This document shows, one piece after another, positions 1,668 to 10,965 of a stretch of DNA of 12,554 nucleotides. This DNA comes from a virus, in UHGV virus genome UHGV-0141061; one strand, 5' to 3'. The notes beneath the pieces are model-generated. The model was not told the origin of the DNA, did not search any database, and worked only from the letters and a program-made list of their open reading frames with translations. The stretch's first letter is position 1; each line of letters starts with the position of its first letter. Both the position numbers and the translations under genes were made by a program.

Positions 1668-2849
1668 TCACCCTTTCCCAACAACAGTGCTAAAAAAAGA
1701 ATGCTTCAGAGTAAACTCTAGAGTCAATGTGTAGCGAGATTCAGAATCAGGTTGTGTCATCCCCGATGAGCACAAATACCAATTAACACCGTATGTATTA
1801 CTACTACCAAAAATTGCAGAGTTGATGGGTATTACGCCTAAGGTATTATCATAATTAACCCTTACATCAACCATAGACCTTTTGATATCAACAGCCGTGC
1901 CAGTAAACGTCCCTGATAACTTAGGCAATACAATGACAGTCCTTCGCACAGGCAGCTTATATAAAGTACAGATAAGTGAAGAGTTGTATGTATTCTTAAA
2001 TGTATACGCTAAATCACTTCCTTTGGTTAGTAGGTTAACTTCACCTTTGTATTTTGGCGTGAAAGTGCTGCCAAGCAATCGGTACAAGTCAATTTCAGTA
2101 CCAGACATCTTAACTAAGGAATTATCCCATCCAGTGGTTGACTCTGTAAATGTTAGCGCGGAAGTTAGCTCGTTTAATGGATATGCTGATGGTGTAAAAT
2201 CTTTAATGTATGTAGATGCGTCTCTCTCATCAGCATAAACAATCTTACCGCCAGCCAGGTTGAACGTGCAATTGCTGAGATCAAAATCTCCGTATAACGT
2301 TGTCTCTTTGTCGATAGTGAAAGTCAGTGGCATAGTTGAGTAGATTTTCACTGGAGTTCCTTTAAACTCAGCAAAAACAGAATTCAACTGATCGCTATTT
2401 CTTTCACCATCAGCAGCAGCTATATCGTATACAGAAAGCCTGACCTCTAACCCCCCTATTATTTTGTAACCGTCTGGCGAACTAATTTCATCCATGAACC
2501 TTTGCTCAAACTGGTCAGGGTCATACTTCAGCACATTCGGAAAATAGAACTGCTGAGAACCGTACGCATCGTATACAGCCATAGAATGGCCTTGCACAGT
2601 TACGAATTTGGCAATCTGTCCGTTATATACAGGATACCCGCCAGCGTTAATGATGATTGGCTGTGCAACAGGAACGTGAGAACCGTCTTCGTTTTCCACA
2701 TAAACCTGAATCTGGTTTTCAGGATTTACCGGGTCAGTGCCAATTTTACCGATATAAATTTTGCCATTGGCTACGGCTTTAAAAGAACGAGCCATAGTGA
2801 AGAGTTGCGAAGGCATGCTTACCACAACATTTGCGGTGATATCTGACAT
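1668..2849 (-). CDS. P22-type tailspike, N-terminal part including the head-binding domain; ends at an in-frame TGA
   Basis: From ATG 2847-2849 (GGAG 7 nt upstream): [78 protein letters not shown], which closely parallels the P22 gp9 head-binding domain as I recall it. The track's start at 2897 is an upstream in-frame extension. Confidence 0.8.
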
Positions 2850-2937
2850 TTCATTGCTCCAGACGAATGATATGATGCAACCATGATGTGATTGCATACC
2901 GAAATGGTACTATTGAGTATTTATCCAGTAGGTTACG

Positions 2938-3231
2938 ATGCCATTCCACCCAACTGGTGAGGCATCAAGGATGTACAGCAAATACGACGAGGCGCAGTTT
3001 CACTTGAGACTTCCGCATGAACTTCACGCGAAAATTAAACAGCGTGCGAAGATGAATAACAGGTCGCTGAACTCAGAGATAATTGCAGCGATTGAAGAAT
3101 CATTGACTAAACAAAGCTCTGCATCAGTTTACATTGACGATGCAGAGCGTATGGCAGAACAACAATCCGATATGGTAAAGAAAATTGTCTTTGATACGCT
3201 CAAAGAGCTATATAAAAAAGACAGCAGCTAA
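2938..3231 (+). CDS. mnt: Mnt-like ribbon-helix-helix repressor
   Basis: FHLRLPHELHAKIKQRAKMNNRSLNSEIIAAIEESL...DAERMAEQQSDMVKKIVFDTLKELYKK parallels P22 Mnt (FNFRMPMEVREKLKFRAEANGRSMNSELLQIVQDAL...DAERLADEQSELVKKMVFDTLKDLYKK, recalled). An alternative start is ATG 2971. Confidence 0.8.
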   Translation: MPFHPTGEASRMYSKYDEAQFHLRLPHELHAKIKQRAKMNNRSLNSEIIAAIEESLTKQSSASVYIDDAERMAEQQSDMVKKIVFDTLKELYKKDSS

Positions 3232-3238
3232 CTATCAG

Positions 3239-3742
3239 TTACGGAGGATTCCCGATAGGGGGTAAGGGGGTATTTGTATTTATTGTCTTTTGTATATTGT
3301 CTTTTGTGTTTGACTGATTCGGTAAATTGCTTTTTACCGATTTGGTGAAGGTTTGTTTTACCGAATTGGTAAATGTTTTACCGAATCCGTTAACTTTCGT
3401 TTTCCACTCGGAAATGTTTGTATTCATACCAACTTGACGCCCCACCTGAATGAGAACTCCCATTCTGATAAGCTCGTTTTTGGCGGTAGAGCATTTGGTT
3501 GGTGCCATGCCAGTGAGTTCAGCGAACTGTTCGTTTCCGATCCAATCTATTTTTTTGTTGTAACCGTATGTCTTGCGCCACACAGCCATAACAATCAGTA
3601 ACTGATGTAGAGTAAGTCCAGAAAGCATGGCGGCTTCTAACAGTGTGTTTGCAGTCCGAGTGTAGCCATCTTCGAGTTCTGCCACGCGATGCTCCACGAC
3701 CTCCAGTTGAGGCCTGTAATCAGCTAACTTAACGACGCCCAT
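3239..3742 (-). CDS. Replication initiator O-like protein, N-terminal (iteron-binding) domain only; C-terminal domain absent
   Basis: DGYTRTANTLLEA..LTLHQLLIVMAVWRKTYGYNKKIDWIGNEQFAELTGMAPTKCSTAKNELIRMGVLIQ..NISEW parallels the lambda O N-terminal domain (recalled). AGGAG lies upstream of ATG 3740-3742. The ORF ends at TAA 3239-3241 just after the iteron and A+T-rich segment, where lambda O continues for about 130 more codons. Confidence 0.7.
   Translation of the reverse strand: MGVVKLADYRPQLEVVEHRVAELEDGYTRTANTLLEAAMLSGLTLHQLLIVMAVWRKTYGYNKKIDWIGNEQFAELTGMAPTKCSTAKNELIRMGVLIQVGRQVGMNTNISEWKTKVNGFGKTFTNSVKQTFTKSVKSNLPNQSNTKDNIQKTINTNTPLPPIGNPP
3318..3393. repeat. ori-like iteron array inside the O-like gene
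   Basis: Three direct 18-bp repeats TTTTACCGA(T/A)TTGGT(G/A)AA at 3332-3349 and 3356-3373 and TTTTACCGAATCCGTTAA at 3376-3393, plus an inverted partial copy ATTCGGTAAA at 3318-3327; an A+T-rich segment follows at about 3270-3317, arranged as in lambda ori. Confidence 0.5.
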
Positions 3743-4581: not shown

Positions 4582-5371
<790 letters not shown>

Positions 5372-6196: not shown

Positions 6197-6348
6197 GCCT
6201 CACGATCCCCCTCACCCAAGAACACATAACCAATTGTATCTATTTGAAAATAAATAGATACAACTCACTAAACATAGCAGTTCAGATCTCTCACCTACCA
6301 AACAATGCACCACTGCAAAAAATAAATTCATATAAAAAACATACAGAT

Positions 6349-6410
6349 AACCATCTGCGGTGATGAATTATCTCTAGCGGTGTTGACATAAATACCACTG
6401 GCGGTGATAC
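6349..6410 (+). promoter_or_regulatory. Lambda-type left operator OL3 (6349-6365), OL2 (6369-6385), OL1 (6393-6409) with PL (-35 TTGACA 6382-6387, -10 GATACT 6405-6410)
   Basis: aaccatctgcggtgatg, tatctctagcggtgttg, taccactggcggtgata and the PL hexamers read directly; near-identical to lambda OL/PL. Confidence 0.9.
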
Positions 6411-6479
6411 TAAACACATCAGCAGGACGCACTACTCACCAGGGCGGTGAATATACAACGATTCAAATATGAATCTACG

Positions 6480-6494
6480 GCGCTGACAAAGCGC
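6480..6494 (+). promoter_or_regulatory. nutL-like boxB hairpin GCGCTGACAAAGCGC (P22 type)
   Basis: Perfect 5-bp stem with GACAA loop about 65 nt downstream of PL; matches the P22 boxB-left sequence as I recall it; no clear boxA upstream. Confidence 0.5.
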
Positions 6495-6557
6495 AATAAC
6501 CAAAGTGAACTTTGGGGTGAATGCAGAAGCTAACCTTCTCGGCGGAGGCGCTTTGCA

Positions 6558-6758
6558 ATGATTACGCTAAGCGAAATGCTTCGCTCATATAAACCAGATG
6601 AACACACTAAGGACGCTATCGACTGGCTGGAAGATGATGACTGTAACTATCAGGAAAAAGCCGCTGAATGGTTCTGGGATGCAATAACCGAAAGAGTTAA
6701 GGCTGAATATGCCTTCGCAATATTCAAACGCAGACACATTTTTGGAGAAGCTGCATGA
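6558..6758 (+). CDS. Small acidic hypothetical protein (66 aa), first gene of the PL operon
   Basis: GGAGG 9 nt upstream of ATG 6558; stop overlaps the next start (ATGA at 6755-6758), implying translational coupling; no homolog recognised. Confidence 0.5.
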   Translation: MITLSEMLRSYKPDEHTKDAIDWLEDDDCNYQEKAAEWFWDAITERVKAEYAFAIFKRRHIFGEAA

Positions 6759-7261: not shown

Positions 7262-7504
7262 ATGTTCAAACGCTGCATCACCAAGTGTGGAAGCACACCT
7301 GACATCCACGCTTTTATTAATGAAGATGGTAAGCTTGTTGTTGAGAGGAGTGGTCATTTTATTAGCAAACAACTTATCATTACCTCTCCAGCGGAGATGG
7401 CCGGGGAATGGATAGTTTCTGAACCAGAGGAGTGGCACACCCCTCTTCCTTATGGCCCTCAGGGACTGATTTATAACCGTTATGTTCAGAAGGAGGCGGG
7501 TTGA
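7262..7504 (+). CDS. Hypothetical protein (80 aa)
   Basis: GGAGAC 5 nt upstream of ATG 7262; the track ORF begins at the in-frame ATG 7247, which has no ribosome-binding site; no homolog recognised. Confidence 0.4.
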   Translation: MFKRCITKCGSTPDIHAFINEDGKLVVERSGHFISKQLIITSPAEMAGEWIVSEPEEWHTPLPYGPQGLIYNRYVQKEAG

Positions 7505-7781
7505 CAATGCCAGGCATAACATCGCCGAGCAATCGAAAGAAAAACAGAACAAGGTAAACGTTGACCTTGCAGCATCAGGCGTGGCGTACAGAGAGCGCCT
7601 TAACATACCTGTTATCTGAGCAGGTAGCACGAGAGCAACCTGAGCACTCACGCGAGTATTTCATGGAGCGCGTCAGATACTATCGCGAGCAGTCGTTAAA
7701 CCTGCCCAAGGGAAGCAACCCATGGTATATCGAGATGGATGAACAGAACGCCAAGAAGTAAGCGCAATTTGAACGAATGCG

Positions 7782-7838
7782 AACCCGCCGAGTGCGGGTT
7801 TTCTTTTATCTGAACTCGCTACGGCGAGTTTTGTTTTA
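7782..7838 (+). terminator. Two tandem intrinsic terminators
   Basis: AACCCGC-cgagt-GCGGGTT followed by TTTTCTTTT (7782-7807), and ACTCGC-tacg-GCGAGT followed by TTTTGTTTT (7814-7838). Confidence 0.6.
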
Positions 7839-7850
7839 TGGAGACAAGAA

Positions 7851-8195
7851 ATGTCAGATTTGGCTATGAAGGTTTTGAAATGGCAATCAACTGGCGATGT
7901 CGGCATCAGTAGCGCAACTCTTGCCTCAATCGCATGTGGCCTGAAAAAGAATATCTATGGTCATCACTTCGGCGCTCCCCATGACGCAGCAGACTTTCGG
8001 CGATGCGTTGCACTTGTTGAGCAGATTCCAGAAATCAGAGATTCATTCGACAAGGTTGCAAAGCGCGTTCCGGCATTCAAAGGAATCCTCAACGAATGGG
8101 ATTCCCTCGTTGCTCTGTTGAAGTCTGAAATGAAGATACACGGAAACAAAGCACCAGAGACTTACAGAAGAATCAGCGAGCTACGCAAGGACTAA
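7851..8195 (+). CDS. Hypothetical protein (114 aa), moron-like gene bracketed by terminators
   Basis: GGAGAC upstream of ATG 7851; terminator pairs immediately before (7782-7838) and after (8199-8259); no homolog recognised. Confidence 0.5.
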   Translation: MSDLAMKVLKWQSTGDVGISSATLASIACGLKKNIYGHHFGAPHDAADFRRCVALVEQIPEIRDSFDKVAKRVPAFKGILNEWDSLVALLKSEMKIHGNKAPETYRRISELRKD

Positions 8196-8198
8196 CCC

Positions 8199-8259
8199 GC
8201 CTCACACTCGATGAGGCCTGTTTATATCTGATAGAGCCGCTATATGGCGGTTTATTTTT
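8199..8259 (+). terminator. Terminator-like hairpins downstream of the 7851-8195 gene
   Basis: GCCTCA-cactcga-TGAGGC (8199-8217) followed by a T-rich stretch, and CCGC-tatatg-GCGG (8237-8250) followed by TTTATTTTT. Confidence 0.45.
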
Positions 8260-8274
8260 GCCTGGAGAATTAAG

Positions 8275-8466
8275 ATGACCGATACCAGCCTGATTCCTGA
8301 GAAAGAAGTGATGAACAAGCTCGGTGTTTCATCACGTCAGACAATCTGGAACTATACCAAACGGCACGGATTTCCGAAGCCAGTCAGAACCCACCCCAAA
8401 TCATACCTTCGTGAAGCTGTTGAAGGGTGGATTCTTAACGGTGGCGTTAATCAGAAATGCTCCTGA
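8275..8466 (+). CDS. AlpA/Xis-family DNA-binding protein (excisionase or regulator)
   Basis: GGAGA upstream of ATG 8275; ..MNKLGVSSRQTIWNYTKRHGFPKPVRT..YLREAVEGWI is the AlpA-type winged-helix pattern; lies beside the integrase; its 3' end overlaps the integrase 3' end by 20 bp. Confidence 0.8.
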   Translation: MTDTSLIPEKEVMNKLGVSSRQTIWNYTKRHGFPKPVRTHPKSYLREAVEGWILNGGVNQKCS

Positions 8467-8920
8467 TGTGCCAGAACAATTTATCAGCGTGAAGCTCATA
8501 CGCTTTGCGCTGAGCCTCTATCCAATCGAGTTTATTGTATACGGACATTATCCCGCCAAGTTCATGACCGAGCATTCGCTCAGTAACATGAGGCTCGACA
8601 TTCATCTCGGACAGCCGTGTAACAAGCGTTCTTCTGAAATCATGTGTTCGCCAGTAACCTAGGTCCATCCCTCCCCTTATTCTATTTACGAATCGGTTGG
8701 CTGCAGCGATGCTGATCGGTTTGTTTATGTCTTCTCCAGGGAAAAGAACATCATTGTACGTTGTCATGGCCTTTTCGAGGAAAGGCTTAATTTGTTCGAA
8801 GATTGGACGGCGGATAACATTACCCATCTTGCTATGCTCTTTCGGTACGGTCCATACGTTGTCCAGCAGGTCAAATTCTGTCTTTATTGCCAGCCTAAGT
8901 TCTGAGAGCCTCGCCCCCAC
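8447..8920 (-). pseudogene. Tyrosine integrase (P4 type), C-terminal catalytic fragment
   Basis: ..GARLSELRLAIKTEFDLLDNVWTVP..HDFRRT..LGHELGGIMSVYNKLDW.. shows the catalytic R/H-x-x-R/Y region; its frame differs from the central fragment at a C5 run (8914-8918). Confidence 0.8.
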
Positions 8921-9136
8921 AGCATAAGCATCTGATGAAGTAGCTTATTTGACGTAGACGCACGGCTTCTTTCAATAGCAAGCCAAATCTTAGCCAGTTC
9001 GTGATACGACAGTACCCGATCCCCTACCTCAGCGCGGGAGCCGAAGTCCCTTGGTTGGATGCTCATAATTGCGCAACTATCTATCAACTGACGCCGCATG
9101 CACCAACTAATTGCTGATCTTAGTTGACTTAGCACC
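8884..9136 (-). pseudogene. Tyrosine integrase, central fragment between the IS insertion and the frameshift
   Basis: In frame with the N-terminal fragment once the IS and one target duplication are removed (1341 bp, a multiple of 3); ends at a stop 8884-8886 created by the frameshift. Confidence 0.6.
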
Positions 9137-9200
9137 TGATGTAGCCCCCTGAAACACCAGACAGTAGCTGTATCTCCAGATAAGAGATAGGCTTGAATAT

Positions 9201-9596
9201 ATGTCTAACACTAACACCAATATTGAGATGACCGGGATCCTGTTAGGGCAAGAAGTCCGTAAACGTAAAACTCCTCAGGAGAAGATCGCCATTATCCAGC
9301 AGACGATGGAGCCGGGTATGAATGTCTCCCATGTCGCCCGCCTGCATGGTATCCAGCCCAGCCTGCTGTTTAAGTGGAAGAAGCAATATCAGGAAGGCAG
9401 CCTCACCGCCGTTGCGGCTGGAGAGGAAGTCGTTCCTGCTTCTGAGCTTACTGCTGCTCTGAAGCAGGTCCGGGAGCTTCAGCGCCTTCTGGGCAAGAAG
9501 ACGATAGAAGTTGAGATCCTAAAAGAAGCCGTGGAGTACGGTCAGTCGCGAAAATGGATAGCGCACGCGCCCTTGTTGCCAAAGGACGGGGAATAG
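9201..9596 (+). CDS. IS3-family transposase OrfA (helix-turn-helix and leucine zipper)
   Basis: ..[78 protein letters not shown].. resembles IS2 OrfA. Confidence 0.85.
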
Positions 9597-10435
9597 CCAT
9601 GGTCAGCCGGACCATGGGCGTGTCGCGTGCGCAACTGTCACTGCGGATTAACCGTTCTGCCGACTGGCAGGACAGGCGCTGTAACCGGCGTAATGAAGAA
9701 GCAGACGCAGAAATACTGTCGGCTATCCTCAACATTATCAGCGATATGCCGAGTTATGGTTATCGACGCGTGTGGGGCATCCTGCGCAAGCAACGTCGCA
9801 CAGAGGGACAGCCACCTGTGAATGCCAAACGGCTTTACAGGATAATGAGCGAGCATAACCTGTTGTTGTTGCATCACAAACCAGAGCGACCGAAGCGTGA
9901 ACATAAGGGCAAGATAGCGGTGGCAGAAAGCGATATGCGCTGGTGTTCAGATGGCTTCGAGTTCGGCTGCGACAACGGCGAAAAACTGCGGGTAACGTTC
10001 GCGCTGGACTGCTGCGACCGTGAGGCCATAGACTGGGCAGCAAGCACGGGAGGCTATGACAGTTCGACCGTGCAGGATGTGATGCTGAGGTCGGTGGAAA
10101 AGCGCTTCGGCGACAGGCTGCCGGAAACACCAGTGCAGTGGCTGACGGACAACGGTTCAGCATATACCGCGCATGAAACGCGGAGGTTCGCCAAAGAGCT
10201 GAATCTGGAGCCATGTACAACAGCGGTGAGCAGCCCGCAGAGCAATGGCATGGCCGAACGGTTCGTGAAGACGATGAAGGAAGACTATATCGCGTTCATG
10301 CCGAAACCGGATGTGAGAACAGCCCTGCGGAACCTTGCAGCGGCGTTCACGCATTACAATGAAAATCACCCGCATAGTGCGCTGGGATATCACTCTCCGA
10401 GAGAATACCGGCGGCAGCGGGCATCGTTAACTTAA
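9554..10435 (+). CDS. IS3-family transposase OrfB (DDE catalytic domain), in the -1 frame relative to OrfA
   Basis: ..[92 protein letters not shown].. is a DDE integrase-core pattern resembling IS2 OrfB; overlaps orfA by 43 nt. Confidence 0.85.
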
Positions 10436-10472
10436 GATACAAAAGCTGTCCGGAAATGGCGGGTCAAGATCA

Positions 10473-10965
10473 GCACCTGCCTTGCTCGGCGTGGATTATC
10501 TTTTTCTTCTTCGGTAAGCAGGTCAACCCATTGCTTAACCGTGATAGAAGATGCCGGACGATTAGGGAAGGCGTCATGCATGCGCTTCATAACCGTTGAT
10601 CGGTAAAGTGCCTGGGTCTTTTCTCTGAGAGTTGTAGAGACGTAGTTGTCGAACCAGTAGTCGAGACACTGGGCGACCGTCATGGAGTTCTCCACCTTCT
10701 CTTCAAAATAGGTGCGTGGATCCGTTCCTGAGAAATAGAGCTTCCGCAAGTCAGCAGTGATCTGTCTGGCATCCTTCAAAGACAGGGATGGGTATCGACC
10801 AAGCCCAAGTCGTTTAGGCTTGCCATACCAGCGATAGCGGTACTGGAACTGGATGACCCCCTTCGGTGAAATTCGTACGCTGAGGCCATCGGCATCAGCC
10901 ACTTCTTGTGGGCCCGAATATGGTTTACCATAAATAGTACGCAGTTTTGTGTCGCTTATAGCCAT
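10473..10965 (-). pseudogene. Tyrosine integrase (P4 type), N-terminal fragment upstream of the IS insertion
   Basis: MAISDTKLRTIYGKPYSGPQEVADADGLSVRISPKGVIQFQYRYRWYGKPKRLGLGRYPSLSLKDAR is the characteristic N-terminal arm-binding domain of P4-type integrases; the track ORF continues 13 codons into the IS before stopping. Confidence 0.8.

Follow-up and report, generated by a model that had tools for sequence, protein, structure and literature searches.

Whether a small gene flanked by hairpins is an independently acquired and independently expressed accessory gene, or an ordinary member of the operon in which it lies, is the question raised by one locus of UHGV virus genome UHGV-0141061, of which a stretch of 12,554 nucleotides (the window) was analyzed. 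The locus comprises an open reading frame of 114 codons (ORF114) with two hairpins upstream and two downstream, and the earlier note, made from the sequence alone, had interpreted it as a moron insulated by terminators, with a possible role in host fitness or anti-phage defense. Our analysis indicates that ORF114 is probably an ordinary, widespread delayed-early gene of lambdoid phages (equivalent to HK022 gp32, 434 gp33, and the mEp043 and mEp213 genes), which occupies the xis-proximal slot of the pL operon and needs antitermination, and that a role as an independently expressed lysogenic-conversion or defense gene is unlikely.

ORF114 is a real gene under purifying selection, because pairwise ratios of nonsynonymous to synonymous substitution rates (dN/dS) are 0–0.19 among six alleles from different phages, and because thousands of homologues exist. 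The differences among these alleles are mostly synonymous. The reading frame proposed in the earlier note was confirmed, with its ATG start on the + strand and a GGAG ribosome-binding site positioned at 7840–7843, eight bases 5′ of the start. The predicted protein (12.7 kDa, isoelectric point 9.2, seven predicted helices) is 100% identical to the products of the mEp043 and mEp213 genes, 98% identical to HK022_32 (gp32), 97% identical to 434 CPT_434_33, and 94% identical to c341 gp20. These homologues of 114 amino acids represent the same gene, and share with ORF114 the ribosome-binding site, the start, a fossil of a xis gene after the stop codon (described below), and the slot before xis or int, whereas the neighbors differ, with a theta pseudogene on the left and an AlpA-xis/int module on the right in the window. 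The module composed of the ribosome-binding site, ORF114, and the next 23 nucleotides is present in 963 of 5,426 complete Escherichia coli genomes (~18%), in at most four copies. The names given to the protein in its source records are all ‘hypothetical’ or ‘prophage protein’. ORF114 and its flanking hairpins are already contained in the records of classical phages (lambda, HK022, 434, and the mEp phages) and are a routine genome feature; the HK022 record annotates HK022_32 merely as ‘N15 early protein homolog’.

The position of ORF114 is that of a pL-operon gene. ORF114 lies on the pL strand, downstream of pL and between the recombination genes and xis, in the order pL, RecT fragment, theta, ORF114, xis, and the same order is found in HK022, 434, and Stx phages. 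The sequence TATCTCTAGCGGTGTTGACATAAATACCACTGGCGGTGATACT in the 6383–6411 region, which we take to be lambda OL/pL, contains the likely source of transcription for the ORF114 operon, and is followed by GCGCTGACAAAGCGC, a P22-type boxB hairpin. No sigma-70-like promoter was detected between the theta gene and the ATG of ORF114: no site scored at least 9/12 in the scan, and the best site in 7700–7850, within 150 nucleotides upstream, scored 7/12. Furthermore, the T-run of hairpin 2 runs straight into the Shine-Dalgarno sequence of ORF114, the T-run of hairpin 4 does likewise before xis, and a Mannheimia phage with a 33%-identical homologue has the arrangement hairpin-U-run-GGAG-ATG both before the homologue and before the small gene preceding int. 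Given the absence of a sigma-70-like promoter and the junction of the hairpin 2 T-run with the ribosome-binding site, the independent expression proposed in the earlier note is not supported.

Antitermination of early transcription is brought about by N in lambda, by gp24 in P22, and by put in HK022. We propose that transcription of ORF114 would depend entirely on polymerase that has started at pL and has been made resistant to termination (by N, or by put in HK022). The gene would then be expressed along with xis once a cell is infected or the prophage is induced, and would not be expressed while the prophage is repressed. The hairpins would gate the whole ORF114–xis unit and may double as conserved joints for module exchange. 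The window prophage keeps pL and boxB but has lost N, and ORF114 is therefore probably silent in the window unless a P22-type N is supplied in trans. Specifically, no N-like gene lies after boxB in the window, and homology to other phages is picked up again only at 6568, upstream of the truncated recT. The 6340–6568 region appears to be a hybrid immunity/nut arrangement from which the antiterminator has been deleted.

In lambda, the same operon, strand, and slot are taken by the exo–xis genes orf55 (lambdap35) and ea8.5, and hairpin 2 with its GGAG precedes orf55 there. The exo–xis genes are transcribed early from pL, those of lambda being non-essential accessory genes, and the region varies at its xis-proximal end (PMC8614690); ORF114 sits in this variable xis-proximal slot, where lambda has orf55. 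The products are not related to each other: orf55 encodes a small alpha/beta protein and the structure of Ea8.5 has been solved (PMC8614690), whereas ORF114 encodes a seven-helix protein, and HK022 and 434 carry both orf55 and ORF114.

A consensus scan of the + strand identified four hairpin-plus-T-run sites at 7781–7801, 7812–7831, 8199–8217, and 8234–8253 (hairpins 1–4), with RNA folding energies of −12.3, −11.9, −9.2, and −10.8 kcal/mol and z scores relative to dinucleotide shuffles of −2.3, −4.1, −3.4, and −2.4, respectively. The whole window contains 18 terminator-like sites versus 11.6 ± 3.9 expected, a mild excess only. The four sites fall within 480 nucleotides, and three of the four are conserved across phages; this clustering and, above all, this conservation indicate that they did not arise by chance. 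Hairpins 1, 2, and 4 combine a canonical GC-rich stem with a T-run on the transcribed strand, as expected from sequence for intrinsic terminators, while hairpin 3, with a 6-bp stem and a weak, interrupted T-run, is marginal as a terminator. The Rfam family rsmX matched the tandem upstream hairpins (7700–7834) with 26.8 bits against a gathering score of 56 (E = 0.1), which we took as a chance result of two stem-loops with U-runs.

Alignment of the locus from six genomes, together with a search for each hairpin in all retrieved loci, shows that the four hairpins have four different histories and come from different modules. Hairpin 1 was seen only with the theta gene as its upstream neighbor, in the window and in E. 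coli strains DETEC-P61 and 1223; other phages have a different hairpin at this position, which in HK022 is the annotated ‘tL4 terminator’ (record X51962), so that hairpin 1 is only a positional analogue of tL4, with another sequence. Hairpin 2, including GGAG, was found with zero or one mismatch in ten other contexts. Its one-mismatch variant, carried by HK022, 434, and Salmonella phage SE16, is 100% identical over a 39-nucleotide probe to lambda 29293–29331, and the window differs by one base both from this lambda stretch and from the one immediately behind the annotated tL4 hairpin of HK022. Hairpin 2 is near-invariant even beside the SE16 allele, whose protein is 63% identical to ORF114, and it precedes, with GGAG, orf55 in lambda, HK022, and 434, but ORF114 in the window. 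Hairpin 4 was found only with the AlpA-xis/int module; in HK022 and 434 its position is taken by another hairpin, which immediately precedes pI and is listed as a terminator in the 434 record with reference to PMID 6305007. Hairpin 4 resembles t′I of lambda and 434 in lying immediately before xis, but its sequence differs, and the two are positional analogues only.

Hairpin 3 is the fossil start of a xis gene, because its sequence (8199–8217) is identical to codons 5–12 of the P22-type xis and because this xis is intact in SE16. In SE16, the stop codon of the ORF114 homologue is followed by a 2-nucleotide gap, by the ATG of an intact 116-amino-acid P22-type xis containing the fossil sequence, and then by int. 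In a tblastn comparison, the fossil matches P22 xis with 97% identity over 33 amino acids. Of the 13 other loci that contain hairpin 3, 10 have it in identical form, including CPS-53/KplE1 of E. coli K-12, which is without ORF114; in K-12 the sequence lies inside ypdJ, the product of which ends ...YSLTLDEACQFLKIS. The gene ypdJ (E. coli K-12 MG1655, 2595–2735 of extracted locus L139) is located just upstream of torI, and appears to be a chimeric remnant formed at the same recombination joint as the one after ORF114. Hairpin 3 is therefore a coding-sequence fossil that is palindromic by happenstance, not a purpose-built terminator, and the ancestral unit was ORF114–xis–int, into which later integration modules recombined within the first ~20 codons of xis.

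The terminator bracket described in the earlier note thus stands in part: the scan and the folding support four real hairpins, but the one at 8199–8217 is a xis fossil, not a dedicated terminator. The bracket does not belong to ORF114, since hairpin 1 goes with theta, hairpin 2 is present in lambda without ORF114, hairpin 3 is the fossil, and hairpin 4 goes with the AlpA-xis/int module. What looked like one bracket is composed of four elements of different origin, and the fossil documents swaps of integration modules inside xis. Furthermore, bracketing by terminators is not a trait of the wider ORF114 family, in which it was found downstream at 2 of 94 loci and upstream at 1 of 32, equal to the background of other open reading frames.

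These histories bear on the possibility that the hairpins are mainly recombination joints (‘boundary sequences’) and/or 3′-end stabilizers of processed pL mRNA, with termination being incidental. Phage homology breakpoints lie exactly in the hairpin T-tracts (window positions 7796, 7823, and 7839), and the near-identity of hairpin 2 beside such divergent alleles, its exchange of cargo between orf55 and ORF114, and the background level of bracketing in the wider family point the same way. On the other side, hairpins 1, 2, and 4 have the canonical stems and T-runs noted above, database records call the neighboring or analogous hairpins tL4 and t′I terminators, and the roles of joint and terminator are compatible. 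We hold a mainly non-terminating role to be possible, though on the unlikely side.

Comparison with lambda places ORF114 precisely. The order in lambda is orf55–t′I–pI–xis, while that in HK022 and 434 is orf55–hairpin–ORF114–fossil–hairpin–pI–xis (compared stretches: HK022 extracted locus L003, 3240–3500; lambda extracted locus L142, 1380–1660). Relative to lambda, HK022 and 434 thus have ORF114, the fossil, and a second hairpin in addition, and the point of insertion is exactly the T-tract of the terminator before pI. In lambdoid and related temperate phages, at least eight arrangements with unrelated recombinases have ORF114 as the gene directly before xis or int: with AlpA-xis and a convergent int at sbcB; with lambda-type xis-int; in thrW/P22-type, TorI/KplE1-type, and HK620-type contexts; in SPN9CC and Cronobacter ENT47670; in the Mannheimia phage, with hairpins on both sides of the homologue; and in SE16, where the homologue abuts intact xis. 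ORF114 is therefore mosaic ‘extra DNA’ relative to lambda, and its description as an acquired mosaic unit is upheld by its many different left and right neighbors.

The moron concept is said to go back to Juhala et al. 2000, and the HK022 record labels cor a moron gene product. ORF114 resembles lambdoid morons in being additional DNA that separates two genes which are neighbors in a related phage and in having a hairpin after the gene. It differs from them in being without a sigma-70-like promoter of its own, in lying on the operon strand behind terminators, in its fixed position, and in that the downstream hairpin is a xis fossil. With respect to an own terminator, the co-travelling element at 8199–8217 is the fossil with its weak T-run, and the good hairpin at 8234–8253 is that of the xis/int module. 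The moron reading accordingly retains the extra DNA inserted in HK022 and 434 relative to lambda, but loses the promoter, of which none was found, the free position, and the hairpins as a bracket belonging to the gene. Occurrence at different loci was likewise not found in lambdoid phages, in which ORF114 is always the last pL-operon gene before xis or int. A hairpin-flanked open reading frame in a lambdoid early operon is not automatically a moron.

The protein belongs to a very large family. ORF114 matches PHROG 1229, annotated as of unknown function, with E = 7.1e-52 (residues 1–114 on profile positions 1–113 of 116), and an exhaustive profile search returned 2,814 cluster representatives (clusters at 50% identity) at E ≤ 1e-3 and 623 at E ≤ 1e-10. 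Searches with tblastn and in BFVD identified relatives in phages of Vibrio, Salmonella, Yersinia, Mannheimia, Aeromonas, Arthrobacter, and Clavibacter, and the family thus reaches phages of Proteobacteria and Actinobacteria. The invariant or near-invariant residues, derived from two sets of diverse representatives (82 and 50), are W11, G18-x-S20-S21, G30, P43-x-D45-x-x-D48-x-x-R51-C52, L55, P60, and W83, all of which are present in the window protein. Annotation of the protein as a lipoprotein, as in the Stx2a_F349 record, was rejected, the N-terminus having no signal peptide or proper lipobox and C29 not being conserved in the family.

The earlier note had not recognized this protein, and neither did the curated models: scans with hidden Markov models gave no Pfam-A or NCBIfam match for the window protein, and 50 diverse relatives gave zero Pfam matches and two weak, chance-like NCBIfam matches, each to a single member. 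The structure model of ORF114 is confident and all-helical, with seven helices; no structural match was found in PDB, the sequence-profile searches gave a best E value of 0.068, which is not significant, and the BFVD matches are uncharacterized phage proteins only. ORF114 is thus a small, soluble, basic, all-helical protein without a detected structural relative, and the profile- and structure-based searches that the earlier note had suggested lead to a large unstudied family with no characterized homologue. Literature searches by accession, PHROG number, and tL4 returned nothing on the ORF114 protein. A very large family that lies outside the curated domain databases, with a confident model and no structural relative, is a reasonable target for functional work in genetically tractable phages such as HK022 and mEp213.

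To survey the wider family, IMG/VR was scanned with a degenerate DNA motif pattern, which gave 120 hits; 119 of these were true members and fell into 96 clusters. For the first ~80 cluster representatives, the two largest open reading frames on either flank were compared with Pfam. Downstream neighbors include DNA methylases (11 loci), integrases (7, within 2.5 kb), and Mu GemA (4), and upstream neighbors include RdgC (6), DUF3164 (6), and MuB (3), as well as RecT, YqaJ, and DnaB. A homologue in Salmonella phage Solent lies near an RdgC-like gene and another lies among the recombination genes of Yersinia phage P840; no integrase was present in the examined flanks of these two loci or of the Mu-like loci. 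The anti-phage defense function suggested in the earlier note is not borne out: no family of PADLOC-DB 2.0 matches ORF114, even at E ≤ 1, and the wider family occupies early regions devoted to DNA metabolism in phages, Mu-like ones among them, that show no integrase close by. Because the genes surrounding the wider family, in many types of phage, are early genes for recombination, for replication, and for methylases, our best guess is that ORF114 would act as a stand-alone modulator of host or phage DNA transactions in lytic growth.

Several points weigh against the reading of ORF114 as a delayed-early pL-operon gene with such a function. The promoter scan covers the sigma-70 consensus only, and a non-sigma-70 or activator-dependent promoter might be located upstream of the gene. 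Read-through by antitermination is extrapolated from the biology of lambda, P22, and HK022. The hairpin just upstream of the gene in 434 is degenerate (−7.7 kcal/mol, z = 0.1), and a strong terminator there is therefore not obligatory. The family loci share no conserved partner gene; a Pfam scan of 20 longer members gave two matches outside the ORF114 domain, a weak Zn-ribbon and a fusion to a CCA-adding enzyme, and the latter, the only fusion to a recognizable domain, was given no weight because it occurs on a single 1.9-kb contig. The functional guess draws on gene neighborhood only, and most of the invariant residues (G, P, W, and a D-P-x-D helix-capping box) may be structural rather than functional.

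The same neighborhoods could suit an early anti-defense or host-takeover protein, which would be produced early in the lytic cycle and would bind or inhibit a host factor on its own. ORF114 is a small early gene of variable presence with no fixed partner, its neighbors (DNA methylases, Abc2, RdgC, and a Lar-like protein) are typical of counter-defense and DNA metabolism, and its family spans phages of Proteobacteria and Actinobacteria. In addition, modeling has led to the proposal that lambda orf55, the other gene found next to xis, acts on host RNA polymerase (PMC8614690). This specific role is rather unlikely, and overlaps with a delayed-early modulator of DNA transactions rather than excluding it.

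The tight linkage to xis and int raises the alternative that ORF114 is an excision/integration accessory that works with Xis/Int, for example as a modulator of directionality, of Xis stability, or of a host cofactor. The placement of ORF114 immediately before xis or int alongside unrelated integrases and excisionases (at least eight arrangements), the gap of only 2 nucleotides in SE16, and the transfer of the xis 5′ end together with ORF114 in module swaps would all be expected of such a factor. However, an integrase lies within 2.5 kb downstream in just 7 of the ~80 diverse IMG/VR loci, homologues occur in Mu-like contexts (MuB, GemA, and DUF3164), in Solent, and in P840 with no integrase in the examined flanks, and lambda, P22, and K-12 KplE1 excise without ORF114. 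Because an integrase is near few loci of the wider family, we regard the linkage to xis as positional, reflecting the end of the early operon and a shared mosaic joint, and we consider an accessory role in excision doubtful. It is similarly improbable that ORF114 is the founding uncatalogued member of a very large family with a specific, conserved early-infection activity, representing either a new class of host-takeover/anti-defense effectors or an excision-coupled factor, although the latter, if true, would explain the extraordinary linkage of ORF114 to unrelated xis types.

A true moron, transcribed on its own from the repressed prophage to the benefit of host fitness or anti-phage defense, is very unlikely: the insertion between a terminator and pI/xis that lambda does not have, the patchy presence in E. 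coli genomes, the intactness of ORF114 in a decayed prophage, and an Arthrobacter phage homologue located downstream of the repressor and integrase genes on their strand speak for it, but the lack of a promoter-like site and of a PADLOC match, the terminator T-runs that abut the ribosome-binding site, the fixed place inside the pL operon, abutting xis in SE16, and the relatives in early operons of Mu-like and other phages speak against it.

Table 1. Features of the window around ORF114 (positions are those of the window)
Feature	Position	Strand	Remarks
cI	4658–5371	+	lambda-sized
OL/pL region	6340–6420	+	lambda-type
pL promoter	6383–6411	+	lambda-type; TTGACA-17-GATACT, scan 10/12; embedded in lambda-like OL operators
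boxB hairpin	6480–6494	+	P22-type, GCGCTGACAAAGCGC; candidate nutL element
DNA polymerase III theta homologue	7482–7761	+	HolE/Hot-like, frameshifted; Pfam PF06440, E = 1.1e-10 on 3′ part
Hairpin 1 and T-run	7781–7809	+	intrinsic-terminator-like; goes with theta gene
Hairpin 2 and T-run into GGAG	7812–7843	+	8-bp stem, UACG loop; conserved lambdoid boundary, terminator-like
ORF114	7851–8195	+	ATG start, 114 amino acids; PHROG 1229 / HK022 gp32 / 434 gp33 family
Hairpin 3 (P22-type xis 5′-end fossil)	8199–8221	+	codons S-L-T-L-D-E-A-C; weak hairpin
Hairpin 4 and T-run	8234–8260	+	immediately before xis ribosome-binding site; positional analogue of lambda/434 t′I
AlpA-like excisionase (xis)	8275–8466	+	recombination directionality factor; PHROG 66, E = 1.9e-8; weak Pfam Phage_AlpA match
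Tyrosine integrase (int)	8447–10965	−	convergent on xis; interrupted by IS3-family element, inactive; 3′ part apparently broken into two open reading frames (8447–8920 and 8884–9135)
IS3-family element	~9150–10450		orfA 9201–9596, orfB 9554–10435

The window itself represents a decayed lambdoid/P22-like prophage integrated next to sbcB (Table 1), with the + strand gene order cI, KilA-N gene, OL/pL, boxB, truncated RecT, frameshifted theta, ORF114, and AlpA-like xis. We regard it as a remnant because N has been lost, because int is split, and because a tailspike fragment and mnt abut a truncated O. Specifically, the head-binding fragment of the tailspike gene and mnt directly adjoin the truncated O (1668–3742), a junction that indicates a large internal deletion joining the late and early regions of a P22-like prophage. 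Since the integrase gene is split by the IS3-family element, the prophage cannot excise by itself. The theta gene reads ...NIPVI-stop and then continues as SEQVAREQPEH... in another frame, and skipping one T would restore the frame; an ‘internal stop’ in theta is also annotated in the two unrelated E. coli strains, DETEC-P61 and 1223, and the defect is therefore inherited and widespread.

Deletions that end inside ORF114 appear to be common in decaying prophages, and seven database proteins (P0015, P0017, P0028, P0036, P0049, P0051, and P0052) are chimeric, combining a portion of ORF114 with portions of Erf, Ea22, Kil, or DUF550 proteins. The equivalent of the window xis is annotated as an AlpA family regulator in a related record. 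The AlpA-type xis and int are convergent and overlap by 20 nucleotides (8447–8466), with int transcription running antisense through xis, an overlap that could allow antisense control. The same convergent xis/int arrangement is common to Stx phages 1717, 2851, and F349.

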